51,676 nucleotides of DNA from a phage. The DNA is taken from the sequence record PZ534514.1. One strand, written 5' to 3'. Both the position numbers and the translations under genes were made by a program. Below, piece after piece: positions 2,379 through 3,452 of the stretch; within the stretch, counting starts at the first letter, position 1, and each line of letters begins with the position of its first letter. The notes under the pieces were generated by a model, which saw only the letters and a program-made list of their open reading frames with translations, did no database searches and was not told the origin of the DNA.

Positions 2379-2702
2379 ATGAAGATCCGTTATGCTGGCT
2401 ATAAAATACCGCGTATTCATTTGCCGCGAGTTTCAATCGGGAGTGATGATCATGATGATGATTATGAGCGAGATAGCAAACATGATTCAGTTATGGGAAG
2501 TGTTATGGAAAGAACTAAGCACTATCCTAAGACCTGGGACGCGCACATTGACAAGCCAGGCGGCTTAATGTCGATTGTAGAAATGGAATACAAAGAGCTA
2601 ATGACCGAAAAGGCAGACGGCTCGCATCATGGCATTGAGAAAGAATTAACCGATCTTGCTGCCGCTTGTATCTGCGCATTGCGTAAAATGAAATCAATGT
2701 AA
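2379..2702 (+). CDS. Hypothetical protein; weak resemblance to all-alpha MazG-like NTP pyrophosphohydrolase motifs
   Basis: ORF with upstream agaggg; motifs SIVEMEYKEL and EKELTDLAAACICAL resemble MazG EExxE / EELxDV helices (unverified). Confidence 0.5.
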   Translation: MKIRYAGYKIPRIHLPRVSIGSDDHDDDYERDSKHDSVMGSVMERTKHYPKTWDAHIDKPGGLMSIVEMEYKELMTEKADGSHHGIEKELTDLAAACICALRKMKSM

Positions 2703-2716
2703 AAAGGTTAACCGAT

Positions 2717-3208
2717 ATGCAAAACATTAATCAAAATGGCGCTGGCGTGACTCAATTCAACGGGATGAGGCCGAAACAAATCATTGAGATTGGCGGCGTT
2801 AAATGGTCGTTACGGCGTGATGCTACTGACTCATCAATGGCGTTTCCTCACCAGAAAGTAAACTGGCTTAACGCTGGATGTGAGCCGCTTGATGGCAATA
2901 TTCATTATTGTTGGATAATGGGCGTAATTGCGCCAAATATGGGGACTCTTGAGCGTCCGGCTAATGTGATGTATATCGGTTTTCACCAACAGAGGATCAT
3001 GATCGCACCAAATAGCGTTACTGTTGCAGATCTAGACAGGATGCATGTTTATGTAAGCGATAGCTCAAATTTTGTTGGTGAGTTTGTAGGAAAGTTTTTA
3101 GGAATTGAACCTGAAAAGCCAGTAGCAGAAAGGGAATCAATTAGCCCGTGGCCTGTAATGCCAGAACAGCAATCAACTCCTGAAGGAAAAGCAAATGACG
3201 AAAAGTGA
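2717..3208 (+). CDS. Hypothetical protein
   Basis: 163-aa ORF in the same + operon, weak RBS aaaagg. Confidence 0.55.
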   Translation: MQNINQNGAGVTQFNGMRPKQIIEIGGVKWSLRRDATDSSMAFPHQKVNWLNAGCEPLDGNIHYCWIMGVIAPNMGTLERPANVMYIGFHQQRIMIAPNSVTVADLDRMHVYVSDSSNFVGEFVGKFLGIEPEKPVAERESISPWPVMPEQQSTPEGKANDEK

Positions 3209-3452
3209 AGGAATTGATCAGGTAGTTAAAGACCTTTCAGAGAGAGCGCACACAATAGCTGATGATGGTCACTCACCAATATCAATCATGAAATCGGCAA
3301 TGTCAGATTTTAACGGGCTTGGAAGTATGAGCGGAATGTTGTCAATAATGACCACTGGAAAACTTAACGCTCATCAAACTGAACTTGCAAAGCGAATTGC
3401 TGTTAAGGTTATTGCCGTTCTTGGGATGGCTGAAAGTGAAAAAGGGGCGTAA
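3195..3452 (+). CDS. Hypothetical protein
   Basis: 85-aa ORF overlapping the upstream stop, RBS gaagga. Confidence 0.5.
   Translation: MTKSEGIDQVVKDLSERAHTIADDGHSPISIMKSAMSDFNGLGSMSGMLSIMTTGKLNAHQTELAKRIAVKVIAVLGMAESEKGA

Follow-up and report, generated by a model that had tools for sequence, protein, structure and literature searches.

The 51,676-nucleotide (nt) phage sequence PZ534514.1, the whole of which is called the window here, carries three small genes, named g1, g2 and g3, downstream of a lateral tail-fibre gene. These genes appear to be the distal, low-output part of an autonomous and horizontally mobile cassette of four late genes, seated in the hypervariable lateral-tail-fibre locus, and to this reading we give a probability of about 0.6. 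Two points are new, namely the recognition of the four genes as one conserved unit enclosing a conserved hairpin, and a sizeable unclassified branch of the nucleoside triphosphate (NTP) pyrophosphohydrolases that is tied to it. The original prediction had described a trio of 107, 163 and 85 amino acids (aa) at positions 2379–3452; its sizes and coordinates were confirmed by the listing of open reading frames (ORFs), as was the arrangement in which the three genes follow the fibre gene on the plus strand and converge on ssb and erf. It had missed the gene immediately upstream that belongs to the same unit (g0), the hairpins at 1463–1486, 2339–2358 and 3441–3461, and a 14-nt overlap between g2 and g3. 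The four genes are:

1628–2329, plus strand: g0, 233 aa (the ORF is readable from 1580, and the conserved start MSDMTLLP lies at 1628)
2379–2702, plus strand: g1, 107 aa
2717–3208, plus strand: g2, 163 aa
3195–3452, plus strand: g3, 85 aa

A Shine-Dalgarno-like sequence precedes each of g1, g2 and g3, and each of them matches a PHROG of unassigned function over its full length (g1, phrog_9157 at 3e-50; g2, phrog_8329 at 1e-87; g3, phrog_7239 at 4e-44). In a collection of 5.8 billion proteins, 40–47 homologous clusters were found for each of the three, nearly all from contigs of 40–74 kb, and homologues occur in many phages with identities down to about 40%. Ribosome binding sites, full-length family matches and numerous distant homologues together establish that g1–g3 are real genes rather than chance ORFs. 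The preceding g0 matches phrog_9288 at 2e-123, and 230 phage records match it by tblastn.

The order and spacing of g0, g1, g2 and g3 are kept across very distant phages. Far outside the T1-like group, tblastn recovered g1-g2-g3 in the same order in Seuratvirus and Nonagvirus (CAjan, JenP1), Sashavirus, Nonanavirus, Eiauvirus and Yersinia phage PY100, and a g0 homologue of 216–235 aa lies directly 5' of them in CAjan (gp21–24), eiAU (P858_08–11) and PY100 (ORF29–32); in all cassettes examined such a homologue was found directly upstream of g1. The four-gene order is also kept in a 73.8-kb metagenomic contig (L008), where it stands among AAA, helicase and PolA genes, and in a podovirus-like contig (L013), where it lies 3' of a tail spike gene, the exception being a metagenomic contig (L010) that holds g0, g1 and a g3-like gene and no g2. 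When IMG/VR was queried with a distant g1 subfamily alone, 12 viral loci were returned (L016–L027), in each of which g1 is flanked immediately by a g0-like gene on its 5' side and a g2-like gene on its 3' side, with a g3-like ORF detectable in at least seven. Since the g0-g1-g2-g3 order recurs across phages, the trio first noted represents three quarters of a conserved cassette. Small cysteine-rich ORFs were also observed beside some cassettes: zinc-ribbon-like ORFs of 67–69 aa with a CxxC...CxxC pattern, weakly matching the Lar and LysW zinc ribbons, lie just 5' of g0 in L008 (4423–4626) and L010 (4848–5057), and a Cys-rich ORF of 67 aa lies immediately 3' of g3 in CAjan (L005, 5314–5517).

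The elements that bound and subdivide the cassette, with the genes on either side of it, are:

267–1448, plus strand: lateral tail-fibre gene, 393 aa, with a Peptidase_S74 C-terminus
1463–1486, plus strand: terminator-like hairpin after the fibre gene, with a 10-base-pair stem including 7 GC pairs, followed by TTTTTTTCG
1558–1586, plus strand: conserved upstream element, with the −10-like hexamer CATACT and, after it, the palindrome GTAAC-N6-GTTGC, the only copy in the window
2339–2358, plus strand: GC-rich hairpin in the g0-g1 spacer, AAGCGCC-loop-GGCGCTT, followed by TTTTCATC
3441–3461, both strands: bidirectional terminator-like hairpin, AAAGGGGC-loop-GCCCCTTT, with T-runs on both strands, common to the cassette and ssb
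3467–3913, minus strand: ssb, convergent with the cassette
3958–4614, minus strand: erf, on the opposite strand to the cassette

The hairpin at 1463–1486 is the upstream boundary of the cassette, and a similar hairpin with a T-run lies 5' of the cassette in CAjan; in T1 the corresponding junction of fibre gene and ssb is annotated with a bidirectional terminator pair. A stable GC-rich hairpin fills the g0-g1 spacer in 17 of 18 cassettes, and the recurrence of this stem-loop in spite of unrelated sequences points to selection on its structure. It is likely to act as a partial terminator or as an RNA stabiliser, either of which would raise the output of g0 above that of g1–g3. Downstream of it the genes are tightly packed, with 14 nt between g1 and g2. 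The overlap of g2 and g3 amounts to 1 nt in PY100, to 20 nt in L008 and to 14 nt in the other four compared (the window, CAjan, eiAU and 9NA); this packing and overlap suggest that g2 and g3 are translationally coupled and that their ratio is fixed. As for initiation, elements similar to that at 1558–1586 precede g0 in CAjan (TATGCT...GTAACC..GGTTAC) and eiAU (TATTCT...GTAAC..GTTAC), and PY100 has a different palindrome at the equivalent position. The element may be the cassette promoter with a stem-loop in the 5' untranslated region, and it is kept as a candidate only, since a scan for sigma-70 promoters called none on the plus strand between 1487 and 2378.

We propose that g0, with its glycine-zipper N-terminus, would be made in excess and would either work at a membrane or serve as a fibrous or structural component, and that read-through beyond the g0-g1 hairpin would yield smaller amounts of g1, g2 and g3. 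The g1 protein would oligomerise into a helical bundle, bind a divalent metal at a Glu/Glu/Glu/Asp site and hydrolyse the pyrophosphate bond of a nucleoside triphosphate or related nucleotide, while g2 and g3 would form a complex working with g1, with g0 or with both. The role of the cassette would be a conditionally useful accessory function, expressed together with the fibre genes and lying outside the core machinery of replication or morphogenesis.

The enzymatic step of this proposal derives from g1, in which a basic and variable N-terminal segment (LPRxxLPR) leads through a linker rich in Asp and His to a conserved C-terminal domain spanning some 70 residues (approximately 33–106). The domain contains the motif E70-Y-K-E73, followed after 15 residues by E89-L-T-D92, that is ExxE-15-ExxD, and an alignment of 28 close homologues shows E68, E70, E73, E89 and D92 to be invariant. 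The pattern that defines membership of the all-alpha NTP pyrophosphohydrolases, ExxE-(12–28)-ExxD on two consecutive helices, is found in g1 on the predicted helices 62–80 and 83–106. The subfamily to which the window belongs thus retains the canonical carboxylates. An exhaustive hidden Markov model search of 1.84 billion representatives retrieved 165 members of the family at E ≤ 1e-3; if a handful of fragments and a single long, repetitive outlier are set aside, they measure 79–230 aa, with the domain at the C-terminus in nearly all.

The original prediction had ascribed weak MazG-like signatures to the first gene and proposed profile and structure searches as a check. At the level of the superfamily these searches support it. 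An AlphaFold2 model of g1 contains three confident helices (33–47, 62–80 and 83–106), with a predicted local distance difference test score (pLDDT) above 90 over residues 41–100, and the leading Foldseek matches in the PDB included MazG (7yh5, 3cra, 2yxh, 1vmg), AF_0060, PRA-PH and DCTPP1, with probabilities up to 0.97; the list includes a Thermotoga MazG-related protein and Escherichia coli MazG, and lid helices of DnaK are interleaved among them. Among 177,635 PDB sequences, a profile built from 139 representatives of the family matched AF_0060 of Archaeoglobus fulgidus (PDB 2P06) at E = 2.8e-4 and the PRA-PH structure 1yvw at E = 0.046. The AF_0060 alignment covers profile positions 27–100, over which the blocks P..W, ME.xEL and ELx[D/H]LAAAC correspond. 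Narrower profiles reached 2p06 at E = 0.18 and 1yvw at E = 0.76 only, and their top matches, PA2G4, the neck repeat of a C-type lectin and albumin, are spurious. Two further candidates were set aside as noise, a hotdog thioesterase (E = 0.028, isolated and far below threshold) and an Acb2/Tad1 hairpin Pfam match in one of 139 members (E = 0.016).

AF_0060 is the best solved relative of g1, having the top Foldseek probability of 0.97 and a target-normalised template-modelling (TM) score of 0.62. Both proteins are short all-helical subunits, and the AF_0060 motifs P..W, EE..EL and DELLDVANFC can be set beside PxTW, MEYxEL and KELTDLAAAC in g1; the two share about 20% identity, however, AF_0060 is archaeal and stands outside any phage cassette, and a tetramer has been described for it. 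SCOP places AF0060 as a separate family in the all-alpha NTP pyrophosphohydrolase superfamily, with which it shares the metal-binding motif of MazG (PMC2238974). Because of the profile match and of this placement, we accept g1 as a predicted remote member of that superfamily (MazG/HisE/AF0060), though not of the Pfam MazG family, and it is most likely a nucleotide pyrophosphohydrolase. The enzymes MazG (PF03819) and HisE/PRA-PH (PF01503), like the MazG-like enzymes of phages, carry ExxE...ExxD on consecutive helices at the same canonical 15-residue spacing as g1, and MazG and PRA-PH dominate its Foldseek list. Compared with them, g1 has a three-helix domain of about 70 residues, no C-terminal helix and an additional variable N-terminus with the Asp/His-rich linker, and its wider family mostly has ExxH where they have ExxD.

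The partners of g1 are less easily placed. The g0 protein combines an N-terminus beginning MSDMTLLPTGG with a glycine zipper (GxxxGxxxGxxxG), a Q/N-rich helical middle, an ERCCCET motif containing a CCC run and a C-terminal CCG, and no match to it was found in Pfam, PADLOC or NCBIfam. Over its first 55 residues it weakly matches influenza HA2 in the fusion peptide and the first helix (E about 0.05, with many HA2 entries), a likeness that may reflect convergence in a glycine-rich amphipathic segment and that hints at membrane activity. A spanin or holin was set aside as an identity for g0, as in phage grams, a near relative of the window phage, the holin, the endolysin and an Rz-like spanin are annotated at other places; so was a double-glycine leader, whose consensus hydrophobic positions were not matched on direct reading. 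The model of g2 (pLDDT 76) shows a beta-rich core (about residues 20–128), two short helices and a disordered, acidic tail rich in Pro and Gln. Foldseek against BFVD returned only orthologues of g2, Pfam and PDB profile searches with it were empty, and a weak match to immunoglobulin-domain-like strands (E about 0.8) was not accepted. In a broad alignment only W30, L32, P73 and Y112 of g2 are invariant, which points to a structural or binding protein rather than an enzyme. No significant Pfam or PDB match was obtained for g3, and its matches over 40 residues to Amdase (Pfam, E = 0.006) and to an arylmalonate decarboxylase (NCBIfam, E = 0.03), isolated and far below threshold, were regarded as noise.

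Several observations weigh against the proposed cassette and its enzyme. The g1 protein falls below the threshold of every curated family (Pfam PF03819 and PF01503, NCBIfam, PADLOC), and the MazG-like label of the original prediction accordingly applies at superfamily level only: the window protein has no MazG or PRA-PH match in Pfam at E ≤ 1 and nothing relevant in NCBIfam. The sole recurrent Pfam signals, all sub-threshold, are PRA-PH in 6 and MazG in 3 of the 28 close homologues, and in 12 and 6, respectively, of the 139 representatives, a minority whose best E-values are 3.4e-4 for MazG and 4.4e-4 for PRA-PH. All Foldseek E-values are at least 0.29 and the query-normalised TM-scores span 0.38–0.50, while the modelled domain comprises three helices as against the canonical four, the last MazG helix being absent. 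Position 92 is His in 105 of the 139, and E89 is lost in 39, so that the canonical four-carboxylate Mg2+ site does not extend to the whole family, which may use another metal or be non-catalytic, and some or all of its members may bind metal without hydrolysing nucleotides. Concerning the other genes, g2 is devoid of conserved polar residues that would suggest catalysis, the promoter consists of the conserved −10-like element only, with the negative sigma-70 scan 5' of g0, and the late timing of the cassette is inferred solely from its position.

It is accordingly possible, albeit rather unlikely, that the likeness of g1 to MazG is a relic and that the protein is a small metal-binding subunit or a structural helical bundle within a complex of g0–g3, for instance a metallochaperone-like adaptor using a His-rich tract. 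Besides the change at position 92 to ExxH, the frequent loss of E89 (kept in 100 of 139, compared with 137 for E70 and 132 for E73), the missing fourth helix and the curated thresholds left unreached, a conserved Cys five residues after position 92 would be consistent with such a role, as would the poly-His tracts (HHHHHYHH and similar) that precede the conserved domain in 20 of the 139 (P0138, P0146, P0152, P0164 and L008 5611–5985 among them). In the g1 of the window the poly-His segment is reduced to an Asp/His-rich stretch at residues 22–37. E68 is likewise not universal in the wider family, being Ala in L008. What speaks for catalysis is that the window subfamily keeps all four canonical carboxylates at canonical spacing, and that AF0060, the best solved relative, was placed in the superfamily by the same metal-binding motif.

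The position of the cassette raises the question of whether it serves the neighbouring fibre. The original prediction had placed the three genes in a fibre operon, and they do lie on the same strand, 3' of the fibre gene; in most of the settings looked at, the cassette comes next after a tail fibre or spike gene, as in the window, CAjan, eiAU, L013 and the majority of L016–L027. The operon label holds in part, however, as a strong terminator-like hairpin follows the fibre gene and the actual unit comprises four genes, g0 included. In the distant, podovirus-like contigs it stands between an upstream gene matching tail spike/fibre PHROGs (phrog_1171/7121) and downstream genes for tail and internal virion proteins, and in T5-like Salmonella phages (Epseptimavirus) the tail module ends in remnants of g0. 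The cassette could thus assist the lateral fibre or spike in assembly, maturation or attachment, or add a component to the fibre or virion, with g0 as a structural or fusogenic virion protein and g1–g3 as assembly factors or co-packaged proteins; the hairpin after g0 would suit an abundant structural subunit followed by scarce helpers, and one depositor names g0 a "lateral tail fiber chaperone". We nevertheless consider this unlikely. The cassette is also found away from fibre genes, in PY100, L008, L010 and 9NA. Furthermore, the adjacent fibres already have an intramolecular chaperone domain of their own (Peptidase_S74), fibres next to the well-conserved cassette differ completely, loss or decay of the cassette leaves the phages viable, a protein resembling a nucleotide hydrolase has no obvious role in fibre assembly, and no proteomic support was found in the literature.

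The fibre gene of the window (267–1448) is itself short, and relatives have much longer or split fibre genes at the same site, in agreement with the BASEL study, in which the lateral-fibre locus of Drexlerviridae, lying between primase and recombination genes, was described as hypervariable.

The cassette is dispensable, being absent from T1 and decayed in several phages. In T1 the fibre gene ST26 directly converges with ST27, which occupies the ssb position, and since nothing lies between them the cassette represents, relative to T1, an insertion at this exact module boundary; it is carried by genomes of Hanrivervirus and Tlsvirus. Three independent decayed cassettes were found, all without g1: in 9NA (L004, 3949–4755) gp12 corresponds to an N-terminal fragment of g0 and gp13 to the C-terminal part of g2, P0087 is g0 fused to the C-terminal half of g2, and P0129 is the N-terminus of g0 fused to the C-terminus of g3, both fusions being marks of deletions.

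Such patchiness among close relatives and frequent decay would be expected of conditionally useful genes, and the cassette could take part in counter-defence or host takeover, with g1 destroying a host nucleotide (an immune second messenger, an alarmone or a component of the deoxynucleoside triphosphate (dNTP) pool), g2 and g3 as its partners, and the whole as a mobile anti-defence island hitch-hiking with the recombination-prone fibre locus. The metal site of g1, resembling that of nucleotide pyrophosphohydrolases, and the spread of the cassette over unrelated phage families are compatible with this idea, and according to the BASEL study Drexlerviridae vary widely in how sensitive they are to defence systems, a variation for which no genomic correlate is known. 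The idea nonetheless seems improbable, given that neither g0–g3 nor their distant homologues matched PADLOC at E ≤ 1 and that no match of g0–g3 to described anti-phage-defence or counter-defence families emerged from PADLOC, Pfam or NCBIfam. The position after the fibre gene suggests late expression, whereas counter-defence proteins are usually early or injected, and a large glycine-rich g0 made in excess finds no place in such a scheme.

Equally speculative is a broader possibility, to which we attach little weight, that g0–g3 form an unrecognised and widespread system of tailed phages, travelling with host-recognition genes and acting on a nucleotide at the envelope or at infection. In that case g0 would be a glycine-zipper membrane or virion protein resembling a fusion peptide, g1 a new branch of MazG-like metal-enzymes, and g2 and g3 proteins without known fold; together they would, for example, destroy a nucleotide that signals immunity or stress, or an envelope precursor in nucleotide-activated form. 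If true, this would constitute a new class of phage accessory system rather than a housekeeping dNTP sanitiser. As to the overall order, an accessory function remains our default, followed by a fibre-linked role and then by counter-defence, with non-enzymatic metal binding as the alternative specific to g1.

The proposed accessory cassette has to be distinguished from the morons of temperate phages, as the original prediction had called its location a typical moron position. This holds insofar as an accessory unit has been inserted at a module boundary, with nothing at this site in T1 and decayed copies elsewhere; like a moron, the cassette appears to be autonomous, is bounded by terminator-like hairpins and is present or absent among syntenic relatives. 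Base composition, which in morons should differ, is not atypical: the guanine-plus-cytosine (GC) content is 0.457 over 2001–3000 and 0.425 over 3001–4000 (0.43–0.46, against about 0.44 for the genome), and 0.41–0.48 elsewhere in the window. The T1-like family (Drexlerviridae) is virulent. Unlike temperate-phage morons, therefore, the cassette sits in a virulent phage, comprises four interdependent genes of ordinary composition and has no detected sigma-70 consensus promoter. That the genes are independent, host-derived fitness genes, self-expressed at a module boundary for the benefit of the host, is consequently very improbable in spite of the terminator-like hairpins on both flanks and of the empty site in T1, because the phage is T1-like, the composition is ordinary, the genes are parts of a fixed four-gene unit, and the named homologues all come from phage records except for three Salmonella enterica proteins, the unnamed ones lying on phage-sized contigs.

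Another parallel is offered by cor and llp of T1- and T5-like phages, which are likewise small accessory genes beside host-recognition genes at a module boundary. They are single lipoprotein genes with a receptor-blocking role, whereas the cassette has four genes, no lipoprotein signal and no co-variation with the adjacent fibre. The window itself has a cor-like lipoprotein gene, an ORF of 75 aa at 6582–6809 on the plus strand with a lipoprotein-type N-terminus, MKKLIAVLIAAVTLTGC, and the same position is annotated as Cor superinfection exclusion in grams and T1.

The window derives from a T1-like coliphage of the genus Hanrivervirus, its nearest annotated relatives being Hanrivervirus phages (Drexlerviridae, Tempevirinae). 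Megablast of positions 1400–4000 returned 130 phage records, the best being Escherichia phage grams with 97.6% identity across the entire query. On the cassette strand the Hanrivervirus relatives carry in order a transcriptional regulator, a DNA primase, the lateral tail fibre and the four small genes, and this arm converges with ssb, erf and exonuclease VIII. Nineteen records labelled "Campylobacter phage" (MG065636, MG065637, MG065669, MG065675 and others) are 94–96% identical to the window in the cassette region, and mislabelling or contamination seems likely. Between erf and exonuclease VIII, an ORF of 92 aa (4660–4938, minus strand) is named "tail length tape measure protein" in relatives, an implausible name given that the protein is small and acidic and is encoded within the recombination module. 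A 19-nt direct repeat, ATAGCACnnnTTGnTAAAA, has 21 copies in the window compared with 3.4 expected, and none on the cassette strand within 1–5000; sites of the repeat ATAGCACTTTTTGTTAAAA (e.g., 17329–17347, 29604–29622, 36311–36329 and 45789–45807) lie mostly among small early-type ORFs, and the repeat had already been described for phage TLS (PMC11447400).

In public records the cassette genes are either unnamed or bear conflicting names: g2 appears as "putative TerL" or "matrix protein", g3 as "transcriptional regulator", and g0 as "sugar-binding protein" or "lateral tail fiber chaperone", in the records of JLBYU09 (L001), phiE31-2 (L003), KarlJaspers (L002), Salmonella phage 36 and PJ16. 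None of these five labels was supported by any search made here, and only the label of g1, "putative pyrophosphatase", has some basis. The name TerL probably, if we may guess, spread between records by annotation transfer. In the literature on T1-like, Seuratvirus, Nonagvirus and PY100 phages we found nothing specific on the expression, proteomics or function of the cassette genes.

Regarding g0–g3 as one cassette provides an annotation rule for at least 115 phage genomes. The g1 family, which numbers at least 165 clusters at 50% identity and lacks a Pfam model, represents a separate branch within the all-alpha NTP pyrophosphohydrolases, one where the ExxH variant predominates. Nothing here points to an unusual mechanism, and the cassette is widespread and easy to test, being a tractable target that is small, dispensable and found in coliphages that are easy to handle, some of them from the BASEL collection. 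If it proved to be linked to host recognition or counter-defence, it could help to explain the unexplained differences among T1-like phages.

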